This document shows, piece after piece, positions 35,736-49,423 of a stretch of 64,000 bases of DNA. Numbering within the stretch: the first letter of the stretch is position 1; each line of letters begins with the position of its first letter. The position numbers were made by a program, and so were the translations under genes. The stretch lies in the IMG/VR virus record IMGVR_UViG_3300021137_000006, positions 17,868 to 81,867 of that record; one strand, given 5' to 3'. Source of the stretch: a virus. Under the pieces are notes generated by a model that had not been told where the DNA came from, ran no database searches, and saw only the letters and a program-made list of their open reading frames with translations.

Positions 35736-36727
35736 TGTTCGAAACTGAAACACTTGAAAATGTAATTAAACAGAGCGGGATCTTGGGAACGAGGTCTCCC
35801 TCTTCCTCAGGTTGGCACATAGTTAAATGCAAGATTTGCAACGACTACAAAGCTCGTGCTGGATTTATATTCGAAAATGGTGCTAGCACCTTTCATTGCT
35901 TCAATTGCGGCCACGCTGCTGGACATGCCCCATCTTCGCAGAAATTCTCAAAAGGCATGTACGAGGTACTAACTGCGTTTAATGTAGACATTTCTGCAGC
36001 AAAAAAATCACTCTTCGCCTCGTTTGGTGCACAAGAAGACACAACGGAAGAAGCGATTCACCGTGAGCAATATCGTCAGCCTCCTCCAATCGAAGTCCCT
36101 TCAGAATTCGAATTCCTTAATGTTACTAATCCAACCCATGCAGAAGCTATCCGATACACCGAAACCCGGTTCGTAGACTATGCAAAATACGGGTTGATGA
36201 TATCGACAACAACTAACTCCAGAAACAAGTGGTACAAGCGGATCATCGTCCCTATGTACAATCGTTCTAACCAAGTAATCTACTACCAGGGACGAACCTA
36301 CGACAATCATGCCAAGCGTTGGGACAGTCCATCTGACCCAAAGGCGAATGTGTTATTTGGTTACCACAATCTTGATGATTACTCCAAAGACTACATCATA
36401 ATCTGCGAAGGTCCGTTTGACATGATGAGTATTGACGGTGTAGCAATATTAGGAAGTGAGTTCTCCCCATATCAGATTCGAGTACTTACGGTGAGTAGTA
36501 AGAAGAAGATCGTCGTTCCGCAGCGAGATAAGCGGGGATACGCTCTTGCGTTACAAGCTCTTGAGCAAAACTACTCACTCAGTTTCCCAGATATTGGTGG
36601 TGCACAAGATATAAATGATGCGATCGTTAAGTACGGAAGACTGTACACTGAGCAGCAAATAGTTGCCAAAATGACATCTTCTAAATACGAAGCGCAACTG
36701 AAGCTCGGCATGTGGTGTTCCACATAA
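35735..36727 (+). CDS. DNA primase (gp61-like)
   Basis: Zn finger CKIC...HCFNC, RI.VP, Y.GR, TOPRIM EGPFD, DINDA. Confidence 0.9.
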   Translation: MFETETLENVIKQSGILGTRSPSSSGWHIVKCKICNDYKARAGFIFENGASTFHCFNCGHAAGHAPSSQKFSKGMYEVLTAFNVDISAAKKSLFASFGAQEDTTEEAIHREQYRQPPPIEVPSEFEFLNVTNPTHAEAIRYTETRFVDYAKYGLMISTTTNSRNKWYKRIIVPMYNRSNQVIYYQGRTYDNHAKRWDSPSDPKANVLFGYHNLDDYSKDYIIICEGPFDMMSIDGVAILGSEFSPYQIRVLTVSSKKKIVVPQRDKRGYALALQALEQNYSLSFPDIGGAQDINDAIVKYGRLYTEQQIVAKMTSSKYEAQLKLGMWCST

Positions 36728-36748
36728 CTTTACTATAACCTCACCTAT

Positions 36749-37345
36749 ATGATCACTTTCCCAAAATACCAACCAATCGCCAACGTCGTACTATCTGTGG
36801 ATCTCAACAACGCAGCTACCCAGAATTCTACCGATCTGCTACCGACGATTGGATACATCGGATTTGCTGAACCCCAAGGGGCAAAGGCAGTAATTGAGAT
36901 CGATAGCCAAGGTAAAATTCTTGGTACCAATTCAAAAGCAGCGACAAAGTGGGCAAACGCCAACACCAGGTCGTTACTCTTAATTCACTCTAACCTTGTC
37001 GCAGCGCACGGCCTCCTGCCGGACAATATGACACTAACCCTGGTTGGTTATATTTTTACAGGTTCGCTCACGCTGATCGACGCCCAGCTCGCCATAGACG
37101 GTAAACATAGTGTGTACTGGTTATCAGTCAAAGTACTCAATGAGTTGGTCGTGCGGGTGAGTAAAGTGCAAACTGCATTTGCTGACAACGCACTGTTCAC
37201 TGAAATCAATTTCAACCAACCTGAATTGTTCGTCGAAGCAGCCACTCAAGCTGCAGACGGCGTGCCAATGTTGTGGCAAATCAGTCCCCACACTGAATTT
37301 GCAATCGCTCCTGTGCTACGTGACCCGTACCGCATTGCTTTGTAA
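36749..37345 (+). CDS. Hypothetical protein, possibly a degenerate RNA-ligase-like fold
   Basis: FP....N, LPT..Y.G..EPQG and INFNQPE recall a phage Rnl2-type ligase family, but the motif-I Lys is absent. Confidence 0.35.
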   Translation: MITFPKYQPIANVVLSVDLNNAATQNSTDLLPTIGYIGFAEPQGAKAVIEIDSQGKILGTNSKAATKWANANTRSLLLIHSNLVAAHGLLPDNMTLTLVGYIFTGSLTLIDAQLAIDGKHSVYWLSVKVLNELVVRVSKVQTAFADNALFTEINFNQPELFVEAATQAADGVPMLWQISPHTEFAIAPVLRDPYRIAL

Positions 37346-37347
37346 TC

Positions 37348-37512
37348 ATGCCAGCAGTTGCACGAAAGGGTGATCCGGATTCAAATGGAGACTCGATTAC
37401 ACAGGGCTCTCCATCTGTTTTTGCAAACGGCCAACCTGTTGCACGAAAGGGTGATCCGGATTCAAATGGAGACTCGATTACACAGGGCTCTCCATCTGTT
37501 TTTGCAAACTAG
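37348..37512 (+). CDS. Miniature PAAR-like protein (54 aa, not in the ORF track)
   Basis: MPA-VARKGDPDSNGDSITQGSPSVFAN-GQP-VARKGDPDSNGDSITQGSPSVFAN. Confidence 0.8.
   Translation: MPAVARKGDPDSNGDSITQGSPSVFANGQPVARKGDPDSNGDSITQGSPSVFAN
37357..37509 (+). repeat. Exact 72-bp direct repeat (period 81 bp) inside the PAAR-like gene
   Basis: 37357-37428 is identical to 37438-37509. Confidence 0.95.
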
Positions 37513-37514
37513 CA

Positions 37515-37698
37515 AAACAACCTGTTGACCCACTTTGTGAAATGTGTTACATTAGACAAATCGGGTAGCAGAAAAAGTTAAAAAGAAATTTTGAAACAAC
37601 CTGTTGACCCACTTTGTGAAATGTGTTACATTAGACAAATCGGTTAGCAGAAAAAGTTAAAAAGATCTGTTGACCCAAAAAGTTTTTTGATTTATAGT
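37515..37698 (+). promoter_or_regulatory. Three tandem sigma70 promoters; the first two form a 72-bp near-perfect repeat (period 79 bp)
   Basis: TTGACC-17-TACATT at 37525 and 37604 (both with extended TGn), TTGACC-17-TATAGT at 37670; A-tracts between them. Confidence 0.85.
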
Positions 37699-37749
37699 TA
37701 GCCTTTTGGCATTGAGCCATATATACTCTTACAGTAGAAAGTTTTTGAA

Positions 37750-37854
37750 ATGTCTTCGTCCTTCGTGATTATTAGCAAACATACAATGAGTGAGCGCTTT
37801 AGCGATCGTTCGGATACTATGTGCGCCCTTGTTCAAGAAGGATGGGATGATTAA
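37750..37854 (+). CDS. Putative attenuator leader peptide (34 aa)
   Basis: MSSSFVIISKHTMSERFSDRSDTMCALVQEGWDD; AGAAAG upstream; lies between the promoters and a terminator. Confidence 0.7.
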   Translation: MSSSFVIISKHTMSERFSDRSDTMCALVQEGWDD

Positions 37855-37880
37855 AGAATCGTTCTAACCGGATAAGAAAC

Positions 37881-37906
37881 AAGGGCTCCAAATAGGGGCC
37901 CTTTTT
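37881..37906 (+). terminator. Attenuator-type intrinsic terminator before the tRNA array
   Basis: AAGGGCTCC-AAATA-GGGGCCCTT-TTT; its 5' arm can instead pair with GCCCTTGTT at 37825-37833. Confidence 0.8.
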
Positions 37907-37907
37907 A

Positions 37908-37960
37908 TTGCCTAATCGATCGAGGTTGGTGCAAGTAAGATCATTAAAAATTTGCGTGTG
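37908..37960 (+). promoter_or_regulatory. rrn-like antitermination site: hairpin followed by boxA-like GATCATTAAAAATTT
   Basis: 37939-37953 resembles boxA GCTCTTTAACAATTT; preceded by a TTGC..GCAA hairpin and followed by GTGTG. Confidence 0.55.
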
Positions 37961-37967
37961 TTTTTAT

Positions 37968-38043
37968 CCCTGTGTAGCTTAATGGCTAGAGCAATCGGCT
38001 TTTACCCGATCAGGTGTCCGTTCGACTCGGATCACAGGGACCA
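37968..38043 (+). tRNA. tRNA-Lys(UUU)
   Basis: Cloverleaf; loop CT-TTT-AC; encoded CCA. Confidence 0.9.
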
Positions 38044-38058
38044 AAACTTATTCAATAG

Positions 38059-38271
38059 CTGTGTCCTAATTGTCACAGTATCACGGATACTTGGCGCGGT
38101 CGAAACAAACCCGCCAATAATGGAAAAAACGTTGTACAGGATAAAACGTTGTTGCAGCACTTACAAGACGCTCCTAACATCCGTCAAGGATTACTAAGAG
38201 CCGGATTAGCAGCAAAAGGCGCTAACTACGAAAGAGCGAAACAGTTATTGAATAAGAATTTGGGAGCGTAG
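38059..38271 (+). pseudogene. C-terminal remnant of an HNH endonuclease
   Basis: Startless frame LCPNCHSITDTWRGRNK...GANYERAKQLL, similar to the end of the 43005 HNH (LCPNCHSLTITYKSRN). Confidence 0.7.
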
Positions 38272-38339
38272 CTCAACTGGCTAGCAGCAATCGGCTCTTA
38301 CCCGATAGGTTCTGGGTTCAAATCCCAGTGCTCCCACCA
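38262..38339 (+). tRNA. tRNA-Lys(CUU)
   Basis: Loop CT-CTT-AC; CCA. Confidence 0.9.
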
Positions 38340-38348
38340 CAACATTAT

Positions 38349-38423
38349 GCCCGGACAGCTCATCGGTAGAGCACTCGACTGATAATCGAGCGGTGATTGG
38401 TTCGATTCCAATTCCGGGCACCA
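38349..38423 (+). tRNA. tRNA-Ile(GAU)
   Basis: Loop CT-GAT-AA; CCA. Confidence 0.92.
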
Positions 38424-38428
38424 ATTTT

Positions 38429-38503
38429 AGCCGCGTAACTCAGAGGCAGAGTAATCCCTTGATAAGGGATAAGTCGACATTTCGAAATTGTCCGTGGCTA
38501 CCA
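38429..38503 (+). tRNA. tRNA-Ile(GAU), second copy
   Basis: Loop TT-GAT-AA; CCA. Confidence 0.88.
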
Positions 38504-38510
38504 GAAATAT

Positions 38511-38588
38511 ATCACTGTCGTCTAATTGGAATAGGACACTAGACTTTCAATCTAGCAAATGCGGATTCGACTTCCGTCAGTGATACCA
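38511..38588 (+). tRNA. tRNA-Glu(UUC)
   Basis: Loop CT-TTC-AA; CCA. Confidence 0.88.
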
Positions 38589-38650
38589 TACTTTGTGATC
38601 GTCTATTGGTTAGGAGTTCTAACTCATAAATAGACATAGGAGGACTTTTT

Positions 38651-39331
38651 ATGTCTATGGGTGGTTATCGAGAAGGCTCTGGTAGGAGCAAAACAGGGTA
38701 CTACAATGGAATCTATTGTGGTAGCACTTACGAGTTGTGTTGGGTGATATATTCTATAGATCACGGAATTAACTTTACCCGATTTCCGGGATTATTGGAA
38801 GCTAATGGTGTCCGGTATTATCCAGATTTCCTACTAGGTGACGGTAAGACTATCGTCGAGACGAAAGGGTATGAAGCCCAATTAGCAGTGGATAAGAAAA
38901 CGGCTGTAGCAATTTCTCATGGGTATGTTGTGCAAGTTCTCCGTAAGGATGATCTAAAATACGCTTTCGATTATGTATCTGAAAAGTATGGCACCAAGCG
39001 ATACCACACTTTGTATGATGGATACGCACCGACGTATGACTATATTTGTGATTGTTGTGGACAGCCATTTCGAGTCGATTCTAAAAAGAAAACAGAACGA
39101 AAATTCTGCAATAGAGTATGTGCGGGTAAATTCCGAAAACAACTAATCCTGCAACAAGATGACTGGAGAGACCGAATTTCAGCATCCTTAACGGGACGGA
39201 AGGTTAAGCCGTATCAAAGAAAATATAAACAAAAGTGGATTACTGACGGTAAACTTAATACGAAGATTCAGTTTGATCTTTGTATACCGGATGGATTTCA
39301 CCAAGGGCGAACAAATTCTGTGCAGGACTAA
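38651..39331 (+). CDS. PD-(D/E)XK homing-endonuclease-like protein
   Basis: STYE, YYPDF, VETKG, Zn ribbon, WITDG..N....IPDGF..GR tail. Confidence 0.75.
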   Translation: MSMGGYREGSGRSKTGYYNGIYCGSTYELCWVIYSIDHGINFTRFPGLLEANGVRYYPDFLLGDGKTIVETKGYEAQLAVDKKTAVAISHGYVVQVLRKDDLKYAFDYVSEKYGTKRYHTLYDGYAPTYDYICDCCGQPFRVDSKKKTERKFCNRVCAGKFRKQLILQQDDWRDRISASLTGRKVKPYQRKYKQKWITDGKLNTKIQFDLCIPDGFHQGRTNSVQD

Positions 39332-39353
39332 ACTCCTCAGCAGTGCCATTTAT

Positions 39354-39428
39354 ATCACGTTGGACTTCTAGTGAGGTCATCTGCCTTTCACGCAGACCAG
39401 ACGAGAGCGTAACTCGTACGTGATGCCA
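39354..39428 (+). tRNA. tRNA-Glu(UUC), atypical T-loop
   Basis: Loop CT-TTC-AC; T-loop AGCGTAA; CCA. Confidence 0.8.
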
Positions 39429-39512
39429 TTTACCGCCCATCCTGTGAAGGACCGGCTTCGTGATGACTCGTTTATTGACCGAGGGATACCAAATAGTCAA
39501 TAAGAATTTTAT

Positions 39513-39590
39513 GGCCTATGAGTCTGCTTGGTGTGGACGCTACCCTGTCACGGTAGAGATAGATCGGTTCAAATCCGATATAGGTCGCCA
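39513..39590 (+). tRNA. tRNA-Asp(GUC)
   Basis: Loop CT-GTC-AC; CCA. Confidence 0.88.
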
Positions 39591-39640
39591 ATTATGTTCG
39601 GGATCGAATCATAAATATGTTCGATCACATGGAGTAGTGT

Positions 39641-40054
39641 ATGAAGAAAGTATGTTCTAAATGCCAGCAAGAAAAAGAGCTGTCGGAGTTTAGAAAAGAC
39701 AAATCCCGCAAGGATGGGGTAATGTCAAGCTGCAAACAATGCACTAGACAGTTTTACAAAAGCCAGTATGTGACAAAGTACGGCGACAAATATGCGACTG
39801 CAAACAGAAAGCGTAGAGCTAATCAAGCAGCCATGTTGTACGAATATAAGAGTAAGCAGAAGTGCTTATTTTGTGACGAGCGAGAGCCAGTCTGCTTAGA
39901 GTTCCATCACACCGATCCGTCAATCAAAGATTTTGGAGTCGGTTCGAGCGTGGGACGCAACTGGGAAAAGATCCTCGCAGAGATTGAAAAATGTGTGTGC
40001 CTGTGCAGCAATTGTCACAAAAAGGTACATGCAGGTTTATTAATTATACAGTAG
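39641..40054 (+). CDS. HNH endonuclease
   Basis: CSKC..CKQC, CLFC, LEFHH.DP..K, EI.KC..LCSNCH.K.H. Confidence 0.85.
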   Translation: MKKVCSKCQQEKELSEFRKDKSRKDGVMSSCKQCTRQFYKSQYVTKYGDKYATANRKRRANQAAMLYEYKSKQKCLFCDEREPVCLEFHHTDPSIKDFGVGSSVGRNWEKILAEIEKCVCLCSNCHKKVHAGLLIIQ

Positions 40055-40123
40055 TAGCATAGCGGCTAATGCACCTCCCTGTCTAGGAGACTACCGCGGG
40101 TTCGAGTCCCGTCTACTGTGCCA
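40048..40123 (+). tRNA. tRNA-Asp(GUC), second copy
   Basis: Loop CT-GTC-TA (U37); CCA. Confidence 0.85.
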
Positions 40124-40128
40124 AATAT

Positions 40129-40200
40129 GGGTAGCTTAGCATAATGTAAATGCGCTCACGTTGAGTGAGAGATATTGAGCCATCTCAATAGACGCCCCCA
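40129..40200 (+). ncRNA. Degenerate tRNA-like element
   Basis: D-like arm, CTCAC-GTTGA-GTGAG arm, non-canonical T-like arm ATTGAG-CCAT-CTCAAT, ends in CCA. Confidence 0.5.
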
Positions 40201-40206
40201 AGTTTA

Positions 40207-40266
40207 AGGATACGAACAGCAAATCTAAACAATTTGACCTTTTAATTCAAACCTAAAGTGTATCCT
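40207..40266 (+). ncRNA. Small RNA with a 7-bp terminal stem and a Lys-like anticodon arm
   Basis: AGGATAC/GTATCCT stem enclosing TTTGA-cCTTTTAAt-TCAAA. Confidence 0.45.
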
Positions 40267-40276
40267 GTCTTATTTT

Positions 40277-40352
40277 CCACTTCTAGCTGACAAAGTATTA
40301 GCGCTGGGCTGAAAATCCAGAGATCCTGGGGCGGTACCAGGGGAGTGGGCCA
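40277..40352 (+). tRNA. tRNA-Phe(GAA), atypical T-loop
   Basis: Loop CT-GAA-AA; T-loop GGCGGTA; CCA. Confidence 0.8.
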
Positions 40353-40359
40353 ATTTTAT

Positions 40360-40435
40360 GCAGCCATAGCTCAGTTAGGAGAGCACCGGATTGAAACCCC
40401 GGGTGTCGCTGGGGCGGATCCAGCTGGTTGCACCA
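40360..40435 (+). tRNA. tRNA-Phe(GAA), second copy, atypical T-loop
   Basis: Loop TT-GAA-AC; T-loop GGCGGAT; CCA. Confidence 0.82.
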
Positions 40436-40466
40436 TTTTATAAATATACTACCTCAGGAGAGTATT

Positions 40467-40790
40467 ATGAAGAAGATTCTTGTAAGTTTACTATTAGCTG
40501 TCGCAGCAAGTTCCGCATTTGCTGATCGTTGTTGCTACCGAGGTGGTTGGGGTCATGGAGGCGGCTGGATCGGTCCAGTACTCAGTGGTGTCATCGGGTA
40601 TGAAATTGGACAAAGTCAGCGTCAGACGGTACTCGTGCAACAACAACCTGCGTATGTACAACCTGTGTATGTACAACCTGCTCCGATCATTATCACAGAT
40701 CCCAACCAAGTTGTAATCAACGGCAAGCTGTACCGCAAGCAATTGATGAATATCGATGGCGTAGTGCAGGAAGTGCTCGTAGCACAATAA
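40467..40790 (+). CDS. Secreted Gly-rich / xVQP-repeat protein
   Basis: Signal peptide MKKILVSLLLAVAASSAFA; SD AGGAG; TATAAATA upstream. Confidence 0.75.
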   Translation: MKKILVSLLLAVAASSAFADRCCYRGGWGHGGGWIGPVLSGVIGYEIGQSQRQTVLVQQQPAYVQPVYVQPAPIIITDPNQVVINGKLYRKQLMNIDGVVQEVLVAQ

Positions 40791-40796
40791 CCACAT

Positions 40797-40870
40797 GGTT
40801 CGTTAGCTCAATGGTAGAGCACTGCTTTGACTCGGCAGACACAAAGGTTCGATTCCTTTACGATCCACCA
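40797..40870 (+). tRNA. tRNA-Val(GAC)
   Basis: Loop TT-GAC-TC; CCA. Confidence 0.88.
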
Positions 40871-40877
40871 AACAAAT

Positions 40878-40965
40878 GGAAGGTTAATCTCACTGGGTGA
40901 GACACTGCTTCGAACGCAGTCGGACTCCGCAAGGGGTTAGAGTTCGATCCTCTATCCTTCCTCCA
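40878..40965 (+). tRNA. tRNA-Ser(CGA)
   Basis: Loop TT-CGA-AC; long variable arm; CCA. Confidence 0.85.
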
Positions 40966-40986
40966 ATTTTTACAAAGCATAGAGGT

Positions 40987-41057
40987 GTGACGTTAGTGTA
41001 GCGGCAGCACCCCAGATTGTGATTCTGTTAGTACGGGTTCGACCCCCGTACGTCACC
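40987..41057 (+). tRNA. tRNA-His(GUG), no encoded G-1 or CCA
   Basis: Loop TT-GTG-AT; C73; followed by CCT. Confidence 0.82.
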
Positions 41058-41078
41058 CCTGTGTGCTTTGTAACGTTC

Positions 41079-41155
41079 GGTGCGGTAGTATTATTAGCAA
41101 TACGCGGTCCTCATAAGGCTGAATGAAGGGAGTGCAAATCTCCCCCGCACCACCA
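41079..41155 (+). tRNA. tRNA-Met (or Ile2)(CAU)
   Basis: Loop CT-CAT-AA; G1-C72 paired, so not initiator-type; T-loop TGCAAAT; CCA. Confidence 0.82.
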
Positions 41156-41161
41156 AATCTG

Positions 41162-41212
41162 TTGACCTTTTTGGAAATAGGGTAGATAATTACCGTATTG
41201 ACAAACAAAGGA
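41162..41212 (+). promoter_or_regulatory. Early sigma70 promoter + RBS cassette, copy 1
   Basis: TTGACC-17-GATAAT; the 35 bp TAGGGTAGATAATTACCGTATTGACAAACAAAGGA is identical in the copy at 46960. Confidence 0.8.
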
Positions 41213-41218
41213 CACAAA

Positions 41219-41407
41219 ATGAAGATCACAATCCACACTTGCCCTTACAAAGGTTTCCGCCACATCACCGTTGGTGGAGATAGTTCATCTTACACTGCTA
41301 ACCTGTACGGAAAGTGCTGGAGCGTGTTTTACAAGGGACAGTTGATTGGTGCTACTCCGAAAGTGCGTCGGATTGAATTCATCATTGCTGAAAGTTTGAA
41401 GCCGTGA
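41219..41407 (+). CDS. Small hypothetical early protein
   Basis: Directly after the promoter/SD cassette. Confidence 0.65.
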   Translation: MKITIHTCPYKGFRHITVGGDSSSYTANLYGKCWSVFYKGQLIGATPKVRRIEFIIAESLKP

Positions 41408-41444
41408 CTAAATACGCTAATACACACAACACGAAGGTATAAAA

Positions 41445-41801
41445 ATGTCCCCAGAACAATTCTTGACGCTGGCTGGTATACCAGTAACAACACAGATCGT
41501 TCGTCGATTGAACGAAGCAGTTAAGTCAGGTGATCAGTTTTCACAATCTAAAGCCAGAGTACTGGCGGTGATTGATACTTTCTACCAACAGTACGGGATC
41601 AAAGGGTATGTGAATAGGTTCTTTGATGCCGAAGCTGCAGCCCAGGGAATATTCTTTAAAGCTGAAGTCGGTAATTATAATCCGGAAGAAGTAGATGTGT
41701 CGGAAGTACTCGATGAGTTGAATAGCATCCCAGGAGTGCATGCTGAGGAGTGTTATACGGCAGATCAAACATATGGAGTAGAGATTACAATTAATCGTTG
41801 A
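41445..41801 (+). CDS. Putative head-packaged hypothetical protein
   Basis: TAAATA at 41409; FLTLAGI...LNEA N-terminus. Confidence 0.6.
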   Translation: MSPEQFLTLAGIPVTTQIVRRLNEAVKSGDQFSQSKARVLAVIDTFYQQYGIKGYVNRFFDAEAAAQGIFFKAEVGNYNPEEVDVSEVLDELNSIPGVHAEECYTADQTYGVEITINR

Positions 41802-41832
41802 CTTGTTTGTAGTGTGGTGAGATAATTATCAC

Positions 41833-42009
41833 ATGAATAAATTTAAAGCACTTGCAGCGAAGTATGATTTCACCTTGTGGTACGATCGTAGTTTGAAATT
41901 GTGGTCACTGACTGATAATACAGGTCAGAAAGATGCGTATTACTTCACCAAGCACTTGATAGTGTCTGTGTCACTGGAGGCATTCGAACATTATCACTTC
42001 AATGACTAG
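41833..42009 (+). CDS. Small hypothetical protein (58 aa, not in the ORF track)
   Basis: MNKFKALAAKYDFTLWYDRSLKLWSL...; TTGACT-17-GATAAT at 41798-41826 suggests a near-leaderless mRNA. Confidence 0.55.
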   Translation: MNKFKALAAKYDFTLWYDRSLKLWSLTDNTGQKDAYYFTKHLIVSVSLEAFEHYHFND

Positions 42010-42226
42010 CATGCTGGTTAAAACTTACAAAAATGTGTACAGCTCTGATCTACGAGCGCGAGCAGGGCATCCGCCTGATGTGCTGCAATTGCGAATCGTG
42101 GACGAAACTGGAGTCCTCCATTGGGTTGGAGAGCATGCGCTGCCAGAAGACGATGACGCATATCGTGCGAATCTTAAGCGAGTGAGAGCTCGGTTGGTGT
42201 ACGCTGCGAAAAAACATGGGTATTGA
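42002..42226 (+). CDS. Hypothetical protein
   Basis: ORF in the small-gene cluster. Confidence 0.5.
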   Translation: MTSMLVKTYKNVYSSDLRARAGHPPDVLQLRIVDETGVLHWVGEHALPEDDDAYRANLKRVRARLVYAAKKHGY

Positions 42227-42265
42227 CCAGTTGCTAACTTAATCAATTACAACGACTATTGACAT

Positions 42266-42520
42266 ATGATATACAAACAAACGGTTATCGCAATTTCTAT
42301 TCACCAAACGGGTGTGAATCCAATCTTCGGTGAAGGTGCCACGCACGTTAAGTTGTGTGATGATGCAGCTGGGTATTTCATTGAGTTGAGTCAGGCAGAC
42401 GAATCTGCTGAAAATGGTGTAGTGCGATTTGACCCAACGGAATGGGAAGCAATCAACGCTGCAGTGAAGACGCTGCTAAATAGCGCACCAGTTGCAGACA
42501 ACTTTGCTAGTGTTGTATAA
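42266..42520 (+). CDS. Hypothetical protein
   Basis: NPIFGEGAT....DDAAG.F..L.Q pattern. Confidence 0.6.
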   Translation: MIYKQTVIAISIHQTGVNPIFGEGATHVKLCDDAAGYFIELSQADESAENGVVRFDPTEWEAINAAVKTLLNSAPVADNFASVV

Positions 42521-42530
42521 TAAGAATATT

Positions 42531-42618
42531 GGGGTGTGGAGGTACTGGGTACCAAGCGGCTTTGAATACCGTTCCACTGTTAATAGCGGTGATAGTTCGA
42601 TTCTATCACGCCCCGCCA
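42531..42618 (+). tRNA. tRNA-Ser(UGA)
   Basis: Loop TT-TGA-AT; long variable arm; G73; CCA. Confidence 0.8.
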
Positions 42619-42624
42619 AGATTT

Positions 42625-42716
42625 GGAAGATTTTCTAGTCAGGGATACTAGCCGCGCTTGGAAAGCACGTGGAGCGTCAATGTGCGCCGGAGGTTCGAAT
42701 CCTCAGTCTTCCGCCA
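42625..42716 (+). tRNA. tRNA-Ser(GGA)
   Basis: Loop TT-GGA-AA; long variable arm; G73; CCA. Confidence 0.87.
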
Positions 42717-42724
42717 TGAAATGT

Positions 42725-42841
42725 AGTTGCTCCTGCTGGGCCAGGAGTTCCCACCGAGGGTAGTATGCTATTCGATTCAGCTGAAAGTATGGTACACATA
42801 AATCCGCACGGTTCGGAAAGGTTCGAATCCTTTAGCAACTT
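42725..42841 (+). ncRNA. tRNA-like RNA: acceptor stem and canonical T-arm with an expanded non-tRNA core
   Basis: AGTTGCT/AGCAACT stem; AAAGG-TTCGAAT-CCTTT arm. Confidence 0.55.
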
Positions 42842-42849
42842 CGTATATT

Positions 42850-42924
42850 GCCCTTGAAGTGTAGACAGCGACACACTTGTTTCGTAATCAAGAGAGTGGT
42901 GGGCAGGTCACCACAAGGGCACCA
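42850..42924 (+). tRNA. tRNA-Thr(CGU), atypical T-loop
   Basis: Loop TT-CGT-AA; T-loop GGCAGGT; CCA. Confidence 0.8.
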
Positions 42925-43004
42925 TTTAAAAGAGTTTTCGTCCCCTGCGAGAATTCTTCTAAATGGTCGGATTTTTCAGACTATATACATTAAGCGGATA
43001 CAGA

Positions 43005-43421
43005 ATGGCGTACAGCAAGCACAATATAACATGCTTACACTGTGGCACGGAGCGAGAACAGAGCAAACACTCAGCAAGAGGAAAGTTCTGTTCAAACAGG
43101 TGTCAAGTTGATTACCAGTACAACCAGTTTATACAGCGTTGGTTAGCTGGCGAGGAGACTGGTTTGAGTGGACAGCGTGGAATAAGTTTGCACGTTCGAC
43201 GTTTTGTATTTGAAAAGTTTGATAGCAAGTGTGTTGAGTGTGGCTGGAATCAAAAGCACCCAACAGATGGTCGAATTCCACTGGAAGTAGATCACATAGA
43301 TGGTAACTGGATGAATACGACGGAATCTAATTTGCGGTTGTTGTGTCCAAACTGTCATTCACTTACGATAACTTATAAGTCGAGAAATCGACAGAGTAGT
43401 AGAAAGTACAAGCCCGATTAG
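43005..43421 (+). CDS. HNH endonuclease
   Basis: CLHC..FCS..C, CVECG, LEVDHIDGN..N....NLRLLCPNCH. Confidence 0.9.
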   Translation: MAYSKHNITCLHCGTEREQSKHSARGKFCSNRCQVDYQYNQFIQRWLAGEETGLSGQRGISLHVRRFVFEKFDSKCVECGWNQKHPTDGRIPLEVDHIDGNWMNTTESNLRLLCPNCHSLTITYKSRNRQSSRKYKPD

Positions 43422-43559
43422 CTCAGGGGTAGAGCAACCGCCTTTTCGGAGAGGATAATGACCTCTCTCCACAGGAGATTCTCACGAGTCTCCTGTACAG
43501 GAGGATAACTCCAAAAGGTAAGCGGTAGGTCGTCTGTTCGAATCAGACATTGGGCACCA
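43412..43559 (+). tRNA. tRNA-Thr(UGU) interrupted by a 73-nt insertion in the anticodon
   Basis: Joining 43412-43444 to 43518-43559 gives a canonical cloverleaf with ACCGC-CTTGTAA-GCGGT. Confidence 0.8.
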
Positions 43560-43566
43560 AAATTTA

Positions 43567-43641
43567 GCTCCTAAAGTGTAGATGGCGACACACTGGTTTT
43601 GTAATCCAGAAAGCGAGGTTCAAGTCCTCGTGGGAGCACCA
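43567..43641 (+). tRNA. tRNA-Thr(UGU)
   Basis: Loop TT-TGT-AA; CCA. Confidence 0.88.
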
Positions 43642-43646
43642 TATAT

Positions 43647-43721
43647 GGGTCGTTAGTTCAGCGGTAGAACTCTATCCTTACACGGTAGCTGTCGGCGGTT
43701 CGATCCCGTCACGACCCACCA
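43647..43721 (+). tRNA. tRNA-Val(UAC)
   Basis: Loop CT-TAC-AC; CCA. Confidence 0.92.
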
Positions 43722-43727
43722 CCTTAT

Positions 43728-43802
43728 ACGCGGGTAACTCAGAGGCAGAGTAACTCTGTTACATAGAGAAGGCCGGGATTTCGAAATTCCCCCTGCGTAC
43801 CA
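43728..43802 (+). tRNA. tRNA-Val(UAC), second copy
   Basis: Loop GT-TAC-AT; CCA. Confidence 0.82.
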
Positions 43803-43806
43803 ATTT

Positions 43807-43881
43807 GCCCATTTATTTCAGTGGTAGACAGCTTTCTTGGTAAGAAAGAGGACATTGGTTCAATTCCAATAATGGGCACCA
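43807..43881 (+). tRNA. tRNA-Thr(GGU)
   Basis: Loop TT-GGT-AA; CCA. Confidence 0.87.
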
Positions 43882-43925
43882 CTTATTGCCACCAATTCCC
43901 AGCAATCTCTGCTGTAAGTAACTAC

Positions 43926-44639
43926 ATGGCAAAAATCTTCTTACGCTTACCATCCACGTCTTCAGTGGACCTACGACCAGATGCTGATTATGTTATCAAT
44001 CAGCAATCGTACGGCTCTTGTACAGCAAACGCAGGGTGCGCGTGCATGGAAATTATGTACAAGCAACGTAATGATGTGTCGATCGAATTTAGTAGATTGT
44101 TTTTATACTTCTGTGAGCGGACATTAGAAGGTGCACCCGACGACGATGTCGGTGCACCGGCTGTTCTAATTGGAGAATCTTTACTAACTTACGGAGTGTG
44201 CAAAGAAGAATTGTGGCAATATAATAAAGAGAATATGTTCGATACTCCACCCCAAGCTGCGTTTGATCAAGCACTCTCTTATAGAATTGCTGGATATCGA
44301 CTATTAGATGGAGCCTTACTTACCGCAATTAAAACCAGTTTGAATAACGGTGTCCCAATTTTGCTTAGTTTAATTGTAACAACGTCATTCAGAACCTTGA
44401 CGGGACCCTGGAAGACTCATAACTGGAACACTACAATAACACGTAGTAATAAAGTACTCGGTGGACACGAAGTTGCGATCATTGGATATGATGATGCTGC
44501 TAAGCGACTGTTAATTGAAAATTCCTGGGGACGCGGATGGGGAGATGGTGGATTCGGCGGCATTCGATATAGCGCTATCGATTCTCAACTATTCGGAGAC
44601 CTGTGGGTCCTACAACCAAATTTTGCGACTGTATCATAA
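43926..44639 (+). CDS. Papain-family (C1A) cysteine protease
   Basis: VDLR, QQSYGSCTANA, SRLFLY, GGHEV.IIGYDD, ENSWG..WG..G. Confidence 0.92.
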   Translation: MAKIFLRLPSTSSVDLRPDADYVINQQSYGSCTANAGCACMEIMYKQRNDVSIEFSRLFLYFCERTLEGAPDDDVGAPAVLIGESLLTYGVCKEELWQYNKENMFDTPPQAAFDQALSYRIAGYRLLDGALLTAIKTSLNNGVPILLSLIVTTSFRTLTGPWKTHNWNTTITRSNKVLGGHEVAIIGYDDAAKRLLIENSWGRGWGDGGFGGIRYSAIDSQLFGDLWVLQPNFATVS

Positions 44640-44701
44640 CTGGATAATGTCCAACCTTGCGAGGGTTGATTATGGAGGTTCAAGTCCTCTCGGTCGCACC
44701 A
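44625..44701 (+). tRNA. tRNA-Arg(GCG)
   Basis: Loop TT-GCG-AG; D-loop ACTGGATA with the Arg-type A20; CCA. Confidence 0.85.
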
Positions 44702-44732
44702 CTAAATAAACACACGCAATTTTGATAGTTTT

Positions 44733-44818
44733 GGAGAAGTGGCGAAATGGTAGCCGCACTTGTTTGCTAAACAAGCACTGGAAACGGTGTGCAGGTTCAA
44801 GTCCTGTCTTCTCCGCCA
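44733..44818 (+). tRNA. tRNA-Ser(GCU)
   Basis: Loop TT-GCT-AA; long variable arm; CCA. Confidence 0.9.
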
Positions 44819-44843
44819 ATTTATACAACTAGGAGCTTAACAC

Positions 44844-45014
44844 ATGGCACGCAAGCACGGTAGAGAACTAATTAAACTAGAGTCCACATCCGGTTCAGGA
44901 CACTTCTACACAACTGACAAGAATAAGAAGACTACTCCGGGGAAACTGGAGTTCAACCTGTACGACCCAATCATTCGCAAGCACGTCGCTTACAAAGAAG
45001 TTAAGCTCAAATAA
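44844..45014 (+). CDS. rpmG: Ribosomal protein bL33 (56 aa, not in the ORF track)
   Basis: [56 protein letters not shown]; SD AGGAG. Confidence 0.93.
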
Positions 45015-45020
45015 CAGAAT

Positions 45021-45126
45021 TTTGTAGTTAAGTCGGTCAGACTTTGGTAAAGGCGATGCGGAATGGTTTAGGCCACGTTAAATATCGAAGCGCATCTTAA
45101 TGATAATGTGTGCAGCCTACTACAAA
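45021..45126 (+). ncRNA. Candidate structured RNA (about 106 nt)
   Basis: TTTGTAGT/ACTACAAA terminal stem; AAGTC/GACTT and GATGCG/CGCATC helices; possible TAGGC/GCCTA pseudoknot. Confidence 0.55.
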
Positions 45127-45129
45127 TAT

Positions 45130-45207
45130 GCGTCCGTAGCTTAACTGGATAAAGCACTGGAATTCGAATCCAGTAGATTGCACGTTCAAGTCGTGTCGGG
45201 CGCACCA
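45130..45207 (+). tRNA. tRNA-Arg(UCG)
   Basis: Loop AT-TCG-AA; CCA. Confidence 0.85.
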
Positions 45208-45252
45208 TTTTACCCTACTGTGATAAATAAAGTATCACACATAGGGCTCACC

Positions 45253-45543
45253 ATGTCTCTCAACACTGTCTCTACCATATACGACTACGATATCGCTGAT
45301 ATCGCGTACTTCATCGTACCTCGCACACAAGCTGATACTACCTTCAAGCAGATCTCATTAAAGAAGTGCCAAATCCTTGCAAAACGCAGCTACGTTCAGC
45401 CAACTCAATCGACTCCGACTATTATCGGACCAAACATTTCAGTTGTTCAGTATGATGTCAGATTCCTAGACAACACTACTCTCACGGTGATTCCGTCCCA
45501 ACTACTCTCAGGGATTGAAGCTGTTGCTAACATCATTGCATAA
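45253..45543 (+). CDS. Hypothetical protein
   Basis: ATG after TAAATA. Confidence 0.6.
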   Translation: MSLNTVSTIYDYDIADIAYFIVPRTQADTTFKQISLKKCQILAKRSYVQPTQSTPTIIGPNISVVQYDVRFLDNTTLTVIPSQLLSGIEAVANIIA

Positions 45544-45566
45544 ATAACTGAAATAATCCACATACT

Positions 45567-46928
45567 ATGTCATCACTACTAGAACGCCTCGCCAACATGG
45601 CTGGAGTCTCACTAAAAGAATCTGAGTTCCCTCGGTTCAAGACTATCAAGATTCCTCTAGTCGATGTCGGTCTCGATGATCAACCAGAAGCTGTCATTAT
45701 GCAGTTCGCGCAAAAAGTCGCAGAACAGAATGACGTACTAACAATCGAAGACTGTCGCGTTAACCGTAAGGCTGGTACTCTTGAATTTGATCCAATGTTG
45801 TCAAACGGGGAAGTATCACCGCGTCAAATCGCAGCTTTCCGCAGCTTCGCAATGGATTTTTTGAGCGATCCTGAAAACATTGACACGTACGAGAGCGTGC
45901 AAAAAGGTAAAACTGAAGATACTGCTAACTATGAAAAAGTACTCGGACATAATAATGCAATGTCGGGCTCTAGGCATCCAACAGCTATAAAACTAAAAAC
46001 CGCACCTAAGGGATATAAGTTTAATGCTACTGGTCATCTCATACAGGAAGCTACTGGTAGCAACACACCGTATGATGAACTTGGTGCTTGGAAAGCTGCT
46101 GCAGCGAAAGCTGGTCTTGAAGTGTATTCACAAGGTGCTGCCGATGGCAAGTACACAGCCAAGAGAGATGGTGAAGTGTACGGCCGCTTTAACAAAGAAT
46201 CTGGCGAAGGTTGGATACACTCATCTGCAATGAAGGAGGCAATGACTCCTGCAGAAAAGAAAGAATTCCAAGCCCAGGTCGATAAGAGTGGTAAAGACTT
46301 GGAAACTGCAATTAAAACTGCTCCTCCGGGTTCTGAAAAAGACATGATCAAGGGCTTCCGTGGCGCAGTAAAAGCTGCGTACAAATCGAAATCTGGTGTC
46401 AAGGAAAGTGAACTAGAAGAAGCGCCAATCGGAGAACCTTGGGTTGTTCATCTACAATTCCGTAAGGAAGGTGACACACGCACTTGGAGTTCTGCAACTT
46501 ACAAGCTAAATGCACCAGACAAAGAACGTGCAAAAAGCTACGCAATTGCTGACTACAAGAAAAAAGGATACATTGATGTCACCGCTGTCCGTGCAACTCC
46601 TGCTAAACCTGTGAAAGAAGATGCAGAAGAGTACAACCAACCTGTGGATAGTGCTCAACAAGGTCCGCTTCCACAAGGTCTTGCTGAAATCGCTCAAACG
46701 CTTGGCTTCCAAACGCTTGATACTCAAGCTAACCAAGGCAACTCCCAACAAGTATCCGCAGACACCGTTCGTACTGCTCTACTTGCAGCGTTCAATCTTG
46801 GTAAAACACAAGGAGACGCTGATGTTGGTTCTGCTGCCCAACAGCCACAATCTGGTGGACTCCCGCCACCCGAATCCCGCACATCAGCGGACCATCAACA
46901 AGCAGGTCCAATCGGTACTGCACGATAA
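45567..46928 (+). CDS. Modular putative internal head protein
   Basis: RLANMAGV.LKES N-terminus; IQEA, MKEA, VKES, LEEA, VKED junctions. Confidence 0.6.
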   Translation: MSSLLERLANMAGVSLKESEFPRFKTIKIPLVDVGLDDQPEAVIMQFAQKVAEQNDVLTIEDCRVNRKAGTLEFDPMLSNGEVSPRQIAAFRSFAMDFLSDPENIDTYESVQKGKTEDTANYEKVLGHNNAMSGSRHPTAIKLKTAPKGYKFNATGHLIQEATGSNTPYDELGAWKAAAAKAGLEVYSQGAADGKYTAKRDGEVYGRFNKESGEGWIHSSAMKEAMTPAEKKEFQAQVDKSGKDLETAIKTAPPGSEKDMIKGFRGAVKAAYKSKSGVKESELEEAPIGEPWVVHLQFRKEGDTRTWSSATYKLNAPDKERAKSYAIADYKKKGYIDVTAVRATPAKPVKEDAEEYNQPVDSAQQGPLPQGLAEIAQTLGFQTLDTQANQGNSQQVSADTVRTALLAAFNLGKTQGDADVGSAAQQPQSGGLPPPESRTSADHQQAGPIGTAR

Positions 46929-46959
46929 TCCAACAAGTCCGCCCCGGCGGACTTTTTTG

Positions 46960-47010
46960 TTGACCTTTTGTGAATTAGGGTAGATAATTACCGTATTGAC
47001 AAACAAAGGA
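46960..47010 (+). promoter_or_regulatory. Early sigma70 promoter + RBS cassette, copy 2
   Basis: TTGACC-17-GATAAT directly after the terminator AAGTCCGCC-CC-GGCGGACTTTTTT. Confidence 0.8.
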
Positions 47011-47015
47011 TTATT

Positions 47016-47270
47016 ATGACAGTTCTCGCTACTACTCTGGTTCGTCGTGCACTTCGCGCTGCTGGTGTGCGCATGGGGTTCAATGTGTTCACAAACAAGT
47101 ACAAAACTTGTCGCACTGTTAAGATGTACGGTAGTGATAATGCAGCGATCGACGCACAGTGCATTGATGCTGTCAAAGCATTAGAAATTCCCGGATTGAC
47201 TGTTAAGCAACGCGATTGCTGCACGCACTATGGTACTCGCACTTCAATCATCTTCCGTTTGCCCCTGTAA
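47016..47270 (+). CDS. Small hypothetical early protein
   Basis: Directly after the promoter/SD cassette. Confidence 0.7.
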   Translation: MTVLATTLVRRALRAAGVRMGFNVFTNKYKTCRTVKMYGSDNAAIDAQCIDAVKALEIPGLTVKQRDCCTHYGTRTSIIFRLPL

Positions 47271-47274
47271 TACC

Positions 47275-47460
47275 ATGACCACACTATATCTCGTCACTGC
47301 TGGTAACATCATTTTTGAAGATGTTACTGAAGATGTTGTCAATCCAGTGGAAATCTTTGACAATCTCCAAGCTGCAGAAGATTTTGGTAAATTGTTTGAT
47401 TTCTGCACGATTGTTGAAAAGACTCTCAATCCTGTTGTGCCCTTTCCAAAAATAGGTTAG
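47275..47460 (+). CDS. Small hypothetical protein
   Basis: Coupled to the previous ORF. Confidence 0.5.
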   Translation: MTTLYLVTAGNIIFEDVTEDVVNPVEIFDNLQAAEDFGKLFDFCTIVEKTLNPVVPFPKIG

Positions 47461-48224
47461 TCGGTAAACTCACTTTCCCAGATGGTAACCAGATTATATC
47501 CCATCGACTGTACAAGAGTTTCACGTTCGAGGGTGGTGTGATATAACTCACCTGCTGTGATTGTTTTGTTAAAGGGGTGGCAAGTATCACTCTCGCTATA
47601 GATATCTGGATTACCGTGAAACTTGTTACCATAAAACTCGTATATTGTATTAGTAGCAGCATCATACCCGTCAGCGTGAAACCGAGTATTTGGTATTTTA
47701 TATTCTTTGCCTCGTCCTATTCGTTGTAATGTGCAGTTATTATGTTGTTCGATTTGTTCCAACCATCTAATCGCTTTTCCAGAGTGGTGTTTTCTGTAGC
47801 AACATAGTCGACAGCCTTGTTTTCCGGTAAGATGGTCTTTTGGTGTCATACTAAAATCACCGTGTTCTGGACAGGTTATTATTAGTTTAGTGTGAGTATT
47901 GACGTATACAGCGTTGTGGTACGTATACTTGCTGTTGTGTATTGTGTTAGCCTGCTCCACAAACTCTGCTATCGATTTTTGTTTTGTTTTTATTCGACTT
48001 TGCTGTGCACATTGTGGACATCCTCCGGTGTTAGTGTGTTTGCTTGTATTGTGTGTGCGAATATGTTGGTCAGGTAGTTGACTAAACACACCGTGAATAT
48101 AGCACATTATGTTAACCGGAGTTTTTGCGTTTTTGTATACTACTTGTGAATAATCATATCGATTGCCGTGAAGTAGTTTCGCCTTTTCTATGAAGTTGCT
48201 CATTCGTTTATTAGTATCGTCCAT
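47457..48224 (-). CDS. Homing-endonuclease-like protein (YDYS..Y / C..HG.F repeats plus Vsr-like nuclease domain)
   Basis: Two zinc-ribbon repeats; ADGYD....IYEFYG..FHG; IWE. Confidence 0.8.
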   Translation of the reverse strand: MDDTNKRMSNFIEKAKLLHGNRYDYSQVVYKNAKTPVNIMCYIHGVFSQLPDQHIRTHNTSKHTNTGGCPQCAQQSRIKTKQKSIAEFVEQANTIHNSKYTYHNAVYVNTHTKLIITCPEHGDFSMTPKDHLTGKQGCRLCCYRKHHSGKAIRWLEQIEQHNNCTLQRIGRGKEYKIPNTRFHADGYDAATNTIYEFYGNKFHGNPDIYSESDTCHPFNKTITAGELYHTTLERETLVQSMGYNLVTIWESEFTD

Positions 48225-48322
48225 CTACTCTATCTGGTTGAGTTATACACGTATTTATGCAGATTTTAAAAGTTGACCCCATTTTTTATTAAGTGGATAC
48301 TCTCGGCTCATTAAGGAATAAA

Positions 48323-49423
48323 ATGCTTATACAACAGATTTTCGCTGGCAAACCTGCTCGCACATATCAAGTCGCTGCAAAAAATGAAGTAATAGCCGCA
48401 TTAGTGGGCGGACACACCCGCATCTGCTGCGTGTTGCCAACAGGCGCTGGGAAGACTCATACGGCTGGACTGCTGTTAGTTGCTCCGGAGTTGCGCACCG
48501 TACTGGGTATTCGACCAGACCAACCACTTCGTGTGTTGTTTATCGCCCATCGTCATCGGCTGCTCAAACAAGCCGCAGATGCGTATTGCACGGAAATGAC
48601 TATTCTCAAGGATGATGAATATAAACACACGCCTATGTGCGCAGGGTACACTGGCCAATCCTCGGCGAAAATTTTATTTACTACGTTATCCACCTTTAGC
48701 ACAGTGCCACGTGATATGCAGTGGGACATCGTTGTGCTCGACGAAGCGCACCACGAAGCAATGTTGACTTTCCAACACAAACTGGAACAAATCAGTGTTA
48801 AACCAATCATTGGGTTAAGTGCGACCCCGTCAAGAGCCGATGGAGTGTTGTGCAAGTTTTCCAAGTTTGTAGAGACGCTTTCTCGGGAAGACGCAGTAGC
48901 TGCAGGATTCCTTGCTGATAGCAGTGTGTACTCATTTATAGACAGTCCTGCACGTGAACACGTCGATATGGTAATGGACATTGTTGAGCTCAAGCAATCT
49001 TCGCTCGGTCAAACAATGGTGTTCGTCCGTACTAAACACGAAGCTGTAGATCTGCAGCAGCGTCTTGCTGCACTCAAGCTCACTTCTGTTGCACTGGTCA
49101 ATGTTAAAGAAAAGACACTCAATGCGGAACTGATTAAGTTCGAAAAAGCAGAAGTGCAGTTTGTGATCTCGTGTAATAAGATCGGTGAAGGTACTGACGT
49201 AAAGGGATGCGAGAGCATTATCATTGGTCGTACCACTGCAAGTAAACCACTTTTGAACCAAGTTATTGGACGTTCGGCGCGGAATGACTGTGAATCTCGT
49301 GTTTATGAGATCATCAACCCATTATCGAGTAATAACTTAACTGCCAGTGATATCGTGGATCCCCATTACCACGAGATTTGGTATAAAGTGCGACACCAGT
49401 GGAGATGTCACGTAGTTAGGTAA
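48323..49423 (+). CDS. Superfamily 2 DExH helicase
   Basis: PTGAGKT, DEAHH, SATP.R.D, EG.D, Q..GR..R. Confidence 0.92.
   Translation: MLIQQIFAGKPARTYQVAAKNEVIAALVGGHTRICCVLPTGAGKTHTAGLLLVAPELRTVLGIRPDQPLRVLFIAHRHRLLKQAADAYCTEMTILKDDEYKHTPMCAGYTGQSSAKILFTTLSTFSTVPRDMQWDIVVLDEAHHEAMLTFQHKLEQISVKPIIGLSATPSRADGVLCKFSKFVETLSREDAVAAGFLADSSVYSFIDSPAREHVDMVMDIVELKQSSLGQTMVFVRTKHEAVDLQQRLAALKLTSVALVNVKEKTLNAELIKFEKAEVQFVISCNKIGEGTDVKGCESIIIGRTTASKPLLNQVIGRSARNDCESRVYEIINPLSSNNLTASDIVDPHYHEIWYKVRHQWRCHVVR

Follow-up and report, generated by a model that had tools for sequence, protein, structure and literature searches.

Introduction

Several enterobacterial attenuators are multivalent, such as those governed by the thr leader (Thr and Ile) and the ilvGMEDA leader (Ile, Leu and Val), and leaders of this family also include trpL, hisL, leuL and pheL. 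The trp and his attenuators sense aminoacyl-tRNA, and in the pheM-pheST system a leader peptide controls the Phe-tRNA synthetase. Phages often carry large tRNA sets, the control of which is, to our knowledge, little described. Here, we analyzed a cassette that precedes an array of 25 tRNA genes in a 64-kb stretch of viral DNA (hereafter, the window; positions 17,868 to 81,867 of the IMG/VR record IMGVR_UViG_3300021137_000006). Like the attenuators of amino-acid operons, it comprises a promoter region, a short open reading frame (ORF) rich in the putatively sensed residues and alternative antiterminator and terminator hairpins, followed by the genes proposed to be regulated. We consider it likely that this cassette is a ribosome-mediated leader-peptide transcription attenuator, which gates the phage tRNA array by reading the decoding speed of the codons that the array serves; judged from its sequence, the phage probably makes the array tRNAs only when ribosomes read the leader codons slowly.

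The window comprises the last 64 kb, at the 3' end, of a viral contig from IMG/VR that is 81.9 kb long and estimated to be 23% complete; it is a fragment of a jumbo (giant freshwater) phage. Its primase shares 25–28% identity with those of RsoM2USA and of 121Q/Rak2-like phages, and the 24 sequencing runs listed as containing the stretch 36800–38300 were all DNA, from freshwater or sediment.

Results

Layout and Composition of the Leader Cassette

A first-pass annotation of this DNA, made from the sequence alone, had proposed the order of three sigma70-type promoters, a 34-codon ORF, an intrinsic terminator and the tRNA array, as well as an exact 9-nt complementarity between 37825–37833 in the leader and 37878–37886 at the terminator. 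Both claims agree with the coordinates obtained here, which are as follows:

37515–37593, plus strand: promoter unit 1, TTGACC-17-TACATT at 37525–37553 (-35 at 37525–37530, extended -10 TGtTACATT ending at 37553)
37594–37669, plus strand: promoter unit 2, TTGACC-17-TACATT with TG at 37604–37632 (-35 at 37604–37609, -10 ending at 37632)
37670–37698, plus strand: promoter 3, TTGACC-17-TATAGT, with 10 of 12 matches; conserved in the related loci L001 and L047 described below
37750–37854, plus strand: leader ORF MSSSFVIISKHTMSERFSDRSDTMCALVQEGWDD, 34 codons plus stop, between promoter 3 and the first tRNA (37968)
37753–37821, plus strand: putative sensing codons 2–24, solely for the 11 amino acids of the array
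37825–37833, plus strand: 5' arm of the predicted antiterminator (segment 2), GCCCTTGTT, in leader codons 26–28
37840–37869, plus strand: inner hairpin of the predicted antiterminator, with the stop codon (37852–37854) in its loop; the hairpin is kept in relatives, with diverged sequence
37878–37886, plus strand: 3' arm of the predicted antiterminator (segment 3), AACAAGGGC, overlapping the 5' arm of the terminator
37881–37910, plus strand: intrinsic terminator, consisting of a 9-pair GC-rich stem (37881–37903) with a 5-nt loop, followed by the T-run TTTTTATT
37911–37964, plus strand: block 3' of the terminator (CGATCG...TCATTAAAAAT), common to both cassette types
37968–45207, plus strand: tRNA array of 25 genes (for K, I, E, D, F, V, S, H, M, T and R) and interspersed ORFs, together the putative regulated unit

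The array content, which the annotation had put at 25 tRNAs for 11 amino acids with four Ser isoacceptors, was confirmed with ARAGORN and Rfam, the Ser anticodons being CGA, UGA, GGA and GCU. Leader codons 1–24 (MSSSFVIISKHTMSERFSDRSDTM) draw exclusively on these 11 residues (K, I, E, D, F, V, S, H, M, T, R), and all 11 of them are represented, whereas C, A, L, Q, G and W start only at codon 25; five different Ser codons (TCT, TCG, TCC, AGC and AGT) are used. In each of these three respects the annotation had been correct. Furthermore, each of codons 2–24 can be decoded by some anticodon of the array under standard wobble rules (read by eye).

In the window, 46 long ORFs contain these 11 residues at a share of 0.584, at which 23 consecutive in-set residues have a probability of 4.3e-6, with a factor of 0.21 more for covering all 11; the rough estimate offered initially was near 1e-5, at a share of about 60%. 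The six frames contain 398 ATG ORFs with a length of 25 amino acids or more, and of these the leader has the longest in-set prefix (23), the runner-up having 11. This prefix also belongs to the longest run composed solely of these residues (hereafter, set 1) in the whole six-frame translation of the window. As regards segment 2, which is the exact reverse complement of segment 3 over 9 nt, such a complement arose by chance 101 times when the ORF was subjected to 100,000 dinucleotide shuffles (about 1e-3).

Conservation in Close Relatives

IMG/VR contained one close relative, the contig G001 (109.8 kb; locus L001), the primase of which is 69% identical to that of the window. Its first cassette shows the promoters, then MFSSSVIISKHTMSERFSDRSDDMCALVHVGVEF, both arms as in the window and the terminator, after which a tRNA-Lys opens an array for the same 11 amino acids. 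Metagenomes scanned for the promoter motif yielded a third variant of this leader (leader 1), L047, which is followed by Lys(UUU) and Lys(CUU) tRNAs; a profile search of 1.84 billion proteins added one further leader-1 peptide (P0001), and a Logan contig of run X11 provided the fifth variant. As anticipated in the first-pass annotation, the related arrays keep the ORF, the complementarity and the match in composition.

The leader-1 ORF has 34 codons and is in frame in all five variants. In the DNA alignment there are no gaps within the ORF, and gaps start right after the stop codon; similarly, none of the 12 indel places listed for X11 falls in 37750–37854, although indels are listed at 37734 (16 nt upstream) and 37855 (1 nt downstream). 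Between the window and L001, codons 2–24 differ by five synonymous changes (codons 3, 4, 14, 15 and 21) and three replacements. Over the five variants, nine prefix positions vary, with 11 alternative residues, 10 of which are in-set (for X11, among the differences listed), and some of the in-set replacements required two base changes (T/E, D/T). The tail beyond codon 28, on the other hand, varies freely (QEGWDD, HVGVEF, HVGVEV, REGWED). Codon choice also differs between the two phages: the window has a tRNA-Ser(CGA) and two TCG leader codons, while L001, which does not carry that tRNA, has TCC and TCA there.

The annotation had further predicted that any second array, serving the other nine amino acids (A, C, G, L, N, P, Q, W and Y; hereafter, set 2), would be headed by a leader of complementary composition, and such a cassette was found both in G001 and in the metagenomic locus L049/L051. 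In G001, approximately 24 kb downstream of the first block and on the same strand, a second block carries Trp, Pro, Tyr, Asn, Pro, Ala, Leu, Leu and Cys tRNAs. It is preceded by three promoters of the same type, a 35-codon ORF, MNAVLLNQQPLCAQPNYWLQQAFVHSFSASSVETL (which begins MNAVLLNQQPLCAQPNYWLQQA), and a terminator (CACAAGGGCTCC-loop-GGAGCCCTT plus a T-run). The prefix of this leader 2 is rich in N, A, L, Q, P, C, Y and W, and its arm AGCCTTTGTG (codons 21–24) is complementary to CACAAGGGCT, with one G.U pair. When the prefixes up to segment 2 were compared, set-1 and set-2 residues numbered 23 and 1 in leader 1, and 1 and 19 in leader 2 (Fisher p = 2.7e-10).

The same promoter-motif scan identified the second leader-2 variant, MTALYLNPQPLCLQPNYWLQRAFVHSFLEGSGYC in L049/L051, in which 19 of 21 prefix residues belong to set 2. 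It is followed by an insert-bearing tRNA and then by tRNAs for Tyr (two), Asn (two), Pro(UGG), Gln, Leu, Trp, Leu, Cys, Leu and Leu; Gly, Leu and Ala tRNAs lie farther downstream, and all nine complementary amino acids are thereby covered. The unit-1 promoter motif also heads both cassettes in relatives, and in the regions examined the combination of promoter, leader and terminator was seen nowhere except ahead of arrays 1 and 2.

Neither a further tRNA nor a second array was detected elsewhere in the contig of the window; by synteny with G001, the second array of this phage would lie just past the contig end. Since no overlapping DNA of 150 bp or more is common to the window and L051, L051 cannot be assigned as that array, the only hint that links the two being loose ends of X4, X5 and X7 contigs, which join the promoter repeat of the window to L051-type flanks. 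A terminator-motif scan of viral contigs returned, besides G001, only unrelated high-GC phage terminators (L041–L046), and the promoter-motif candidate L048 was unrelated. In L050 (Ga0007804_1048162, reverse complement 964–1125), the gene lying ahead of array 2 in G001 is followed by the same promoter and then by an ordinary ORF, with no leader cassette.

A Matched Leader in a Distant Phage

A tRNA search was also performed on the records behind five distant primase relatives. One of them, G003 (324 kb, primase 24% identical), carries three tRNA blocks, with 52 tRNAs called by ARAGORN in the region examined and 48 by Rfam in the whole record. Block A holds 22 tRNAs for 14 amino acids (Y, N, T, K, Q, D, R, M, I, E, L, P, W and A) and is preceded by an unrelated 37-codon ORF, MKTAIANIAKQYRQPEWRIEANYAIRNANQEKDKIPS, in which 36 of 37 residues fall within the 14-amino-acid set of the block (background share 0.725, P = 1.3e-5). 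The next-longest prefix among 223 ORFs was 16. This leader is followed by a strong terminator, and the last codons of the ORF pair with the 5' arm of the terminator, forming a candidate antiterminator. In G004 and G005, tRNAs were few and scattered.

Folding of the Leader Transcript

The terminator is present in the minimum-energy fold of all five leaders. In the consensus computed by RNAalifold from three leader-1 DNAs, codons 2–14 pair with codons 17–33, which sequesters segment 2, and the terminator is also formed. A kinetic model was then used, in which the transcript was folded before the 3' arm of the terminator exists and the ribosome footprint masks bases. According to this model, the probability of pairing between segments 2 and 3, P(2:3), in the absence of a ribosome is 0.03, 0.36 and 0.16 for the window, L001 and L047, respectively. 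With a ribosome on leader 1, P(2:3) is approximately 0.9 when the A site is at codons 1–16, mostly lower and variable at codons 17–22, and 0 at codons 23–32. An apparent 2:3 pairing with the ribosome at the stop codon was discarded as an artefact, as the model masks bases and ignores the bulk of the ribosome between the arms.

For the RNA from codon 20 to the terminator loop, the minimum-energy fold is the extended antiterminator, that is, the 2:3 helix together with the inner hairpin, in five of five leaders; the antiterminators have energies of -23 to -28 kcal/mol, compared with -14 to -17 kcal/mol for the terminators. Between leader 1 and leader 2, the 2:3 helix shows one compensatory pair (U-A to G-C), located outside the terminator stem, and two one-sided changes to G.U, with none of the nine pairs broken. 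These changes were read from the folding models, as alignment A4 of both leader types splits segment 2.

Together with the composition, these data bear on one alternative, namely that the ORF encodes a micropeptide or the locus a small RNA with an ordinary terminator, the tRNAs arising from leak-through or internal promoters and the match in composition being coincidental. The peptide core VIISKH.MSERFS.RSD is conserved beyond what a constraint on composition only would demand, and promoter-like sites do exist inside the array, both of which this explanation would accommodate. It is nevertheless very improbable in our judgement: coincidence would have to account for a composition with P of about 1e-6, for a complementary leader at the complementary array (p 3e-10), for the same property in the unrelated leader of G003 and for an antiterminator complement with a chance of 1e-3, plus a compensatory change.

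Proposed Mode of Action

In the attenuation mechanism that we favor, and for which we infer that the leader is translated, the three strong promoters would fire into the 34-codon leader. A ribosome reaching codons 22–34 would cover segment 2, leaving segment 3 free to form the terminator (37881–37903), and transcription would stop before the first tRNA. If a ribosome stalled in codons 2 to approximately 21, for want of any of the 11 charged tRNA kinds, segment 2 would be exposed and would pair with segment 3 before the 3' arm of the terminator is made, allowing RNA polymerase to read into the 25 tRNA genes. The new tRNAs would in turn speed leader decoding and close the gate, in a negative feedback. 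The in-set run of the window leader stops one codon before segment 2, and in the three designs available the end of the run and segment 2 lie at codon 24 versus 26, 22 versus 21/22 and 36 versus 35/36; this tracking would be expected because only upstream stalls can signal.

A number of observations weigh against this mechanism, the first group of which concerns folding. In the folding check suggested in the first-pass annotation, attenuator-like switching was obtained only under co-transcriptional (kinetic) folding, and equilibrium folding keeps the terminator favored at every ribosome position (mean probability of the terminator 0.7–1.0 for the window leader). As attenuators act co-transcriptionally, equilibrium folding with a ribosome footprint was set aside as a test and truncated transcripts were used. 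Because the footprint hardly displaces the terminator at equilibrium, control must be kinetic, as it likewise is in the trp attenuator. In addition, covariation support is thin, the close relatives being few (five leader-1 and two leader-2 variants).

A second group concerns the match between leaders and arrays. The X11 leader has an out-of-set Ala at codon 8, and out-of-set residues are also found in leader 2 (V4 in G001; T2 and R21 in L051). Gly is missing from both leader-2 prefixes despite the downstream Gly tRNAs, and the G001 leader has six Gln codons, yet no tRNA-Gln was found in the parts of G001 examined with ARAGORN, Rfam and a BLAST search using the L051 Gln tRNA; several insert-bearing tRNA-like genes there have no assignable anticodon. 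A quick scan revealed no clear matched leader at blocks B and C of G003 or at the tRNA block of G002. Finally, a canonical Shine-Dalgarno core was not found before the leader, as was the case for 41 of the 64 long ORFs of the window, and the two promoter-like sites within the array (41162 and 41798) could feed its distal half independently of the attenuator.

Leader 2 poses a difficulty of its own. The anti-antiterminator (1:2) pairing, by which an untranslated leader of the trp type is terminated and which is predicted for leader 1, is absent from the models of leader 2, and its ribosome-free P(2:3) values are 0.99 and 0.93; therefore, the default state of an untranslated leader 2 would be read-through. 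Such modelled behavior is what might be expected from a timer or sensor of host physiology, responding to a shortage of charged tRNA (through starvation or host shut-off) or to a late loss of transcription-translation coupling, in which the codon choice would merely let the phage tRNAs close the loop. It would also fit this explanation that leader-peptide attenuators sense aminoacyl-tRNA rather than tRNA as such, as in the trp and his cases. However, a generic coupling sensor would not need the strict sorting of residues between leaders and arrays that was observed in two cassettes and in a distant phage, and we regard this explanation as unlikely.

Content of the tRNA Array

With default settings, ARAGORN called 20 tRNAs in the array; relaxed settings raised this number to 23 (adding two Phe(GAA) and a third Val), and allowing introns to 24, while Rfam contributed the 25th, at 42850–42921. 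The first tRNA is at 37968, and Lys tRNAs lead the array. In its intron mode, ARAGORN also produced many implausible long-intron calls, which were dropped, and only the Thr tRNA with a 73-nt insert, conserved in L001, was kept.

These features bear on the purpose of the device. The same attenuator may have evolved for counter-defence, detecting cleavage by an anticodon nuclease (of the PrrC or PARIS type) and inducing nuclease-resistant tRNAs array by array. The array is rich in isoacceptors and in duplicated tRNAs whose loops are unusual, it is led by Lys tRNAs, Lys being a classic nuclease target, and two separately gated tRNA sets would permit a selective response. Nothing observed points specifically to nucleases, though, and a leader listing 11 (or 9, or 14) amino acids suits a general supply gauge rather than a sensor of a few cut isoacceptors; a specialization of this sort thus appears doubtful. 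A broader proposal, which we advance tentatively and rate only slightly higher, is that the tRNA genes of jumbo phages are distributed over arrays according to amino acid, each array being gated by its own "roster" leader. This would amount to a multi-channel homeostat, which would gauge decoding capacity separately for each codon class and replace only what is missing; it might also give warning of host defences that cleave tRNAs, or of the host shut-off caused by the phage itself.

Regarding individual tRNAs, tRNA-Thr(UGU) at 43412–43559 (L001:17819–17965) carries after the anticodon a structured insert of 73 nt, the same length in both phages and too short for a group I intron. The first tRNA of array 2 in L051 (reverse complement 894–997) has a 28-nt hairpin insert in the same place. 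The tRNA at 42850–42921 (L001:17671–17742) has a low score, 35.3 bits in both phages. Its anticodon loop reads UUCGUAA (Thr CGU), the stem below contains a U.U pair, and its T loop is unusual; it was missed by ARAGORN. Most isoacceptors of the window (Lys, Ile, Glu, Asp, Phe and Val) occur twice, with diverged bodies, in 38262–38588, 39354–40435 and 43567–43802. The L001 array is more compact, with mostly single copies (two Asp are kept) and without Val(GAC), Ser(CGA), Lys(CUU) and Arg(UCG).

Protein-coding genes are interspersed among the tRNAs. A bL33 gene at 44844–45014 (Pfam Ribosomal_L33, E = 1.6e-15) lies between tRNA-Ser(GCU) and tRNA-Arg(UCG), an HNH endonuclease is encoded at 42963–43421 (E = 4e-5), and the ORF at 43929–44639 specifies a cysteine peptidase of the papain family (E = 2e-11). 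No significant Pfam match was obtained for the ORFs at 38651–39331, 39641–40054, 40464–40790, 41445–41801 and 42266–42520, the first of which has a sub-threshold similarity to Zn_ribbon_8 (16.7 bits, versus a cut-off of 34.4). The promoter-like sites within the array, at 41162–41190 and 41798–41826 (10 of 12 matches), are placed after tRNA-Met and before the run of small ORFs, and have counterparts at matching positions in L001 (16153–16180 and 16445–16473).

With regard to the surroundings of the leader, promoter units 1 and 2 form two 79-bp tandem units, and the start site of promoter 3 would be near 37705. The CGATCG...TCATTAAAAAT block is conserved after both terminators in L001, L047, L039 and L051, and could be a processing site or a Nus-type antitermination site for the untranslated array. 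Upstream, the promoters are adjoined by an ORF of 54 amino acids with a PAAR motif (37348–37512), made of two near-identical 27-codon units, which may be a collapsed assembly repeat.

Discussion

The cassette described here offers a concrete mechanism for the control of a phage tRNA set, in which strong promoters would be restrained by a gate read through translation and tRNAs would be supplied on demand. It would also explain why the tRNA genes of these phages fall into separate, amino-acid-sorted blocks. For genome annotation, a practical rule follows: ahead of tRNA arrays, a short ORF plus terminator should be sought whose composition equals the content of the array. Such a leader would, in addition, be a natural and compact sensor of decoding capacity for synthetic biology.

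We compared the cassette with the described systems nearest to it, starting from RNA families. No Rfam leader family was matched: the best hit, Phe_leader, reached 24.6 bits (E = 0.067), well below the gathering score of 55, and covered the terminator part only; nor did any cis-regulatory family reach its threshold in 36000–50000 or in 37500–37970. T-box riboswitches resemble the proposed device in that a terminator/antiterminator switch reports tRNA status, but they bind uncharged tRNA directly and need no translation. T-box matches were absent at E ≤ 1 in 36000–50000 and at E ≤ 10 in 37500–37970.

The trn operon of Anabaena PCC 7120 (PMC8421152, PMC10272220) is a long, stress-induced tRNA array on a megaplasmid that stays silent until translation is impaired, its control being assigned to the RHH repressor TrcR. 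It shares with our proposal for the phage the silencing of an additional tRNA array and its induction on impaired translation, and differs from it in being a cellular megaplasmid system with control assigned to a protein repressor. A word search of PMC8421152 gave no hits for "attenuat", "leader" or "terminator". More generally, no published account of leader-peptide attenuation of tRNA genes was found in searchable full text, subscription journals and supplementary files lying outside that search.

The pheM-pheST system is similar to the cassette in that leader-peptide attenuation acts on a component of the translation apparatus; it concerns, however, a single amino acid and a synthetase, whereas the phage cassette lists many amino acids and precedes tRNA genes. 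The closest resemblance in design is to the attenuators of amino-acid operons, with which the phage cassette also shares the choice of hairpin by ribosome position (here modelled) and, in leader 1 but not in leader 2, a predicted pairing of the 1:2 type that would hide segment 2. These attenuators govern biosynthetic, transport or synthetase genes, while the phage unit consists of tRNAs together with HNH, peptidase and bL33 ORFs. Their leaders contain runs of one to three kinds of residue, in contrast to the 11 amino acids listed about once or twice each in the phage leader. Unlike them, moreover, the phage cassette would sense the very molecule that it produces, tRNA; it is phage-encoded and it occurs in complementary pairs. 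Leader-peptide attenuation would thereby be extended from amino-acid supply to tRNA supply, and from between one and three sensed residues to eleven. If the roster leaders indeed act in this way, tRNA genes would for the first time be found under leader-peptide attenuation, and a single attenuator would for the first time sense between 9 and 14 amino acids at once.

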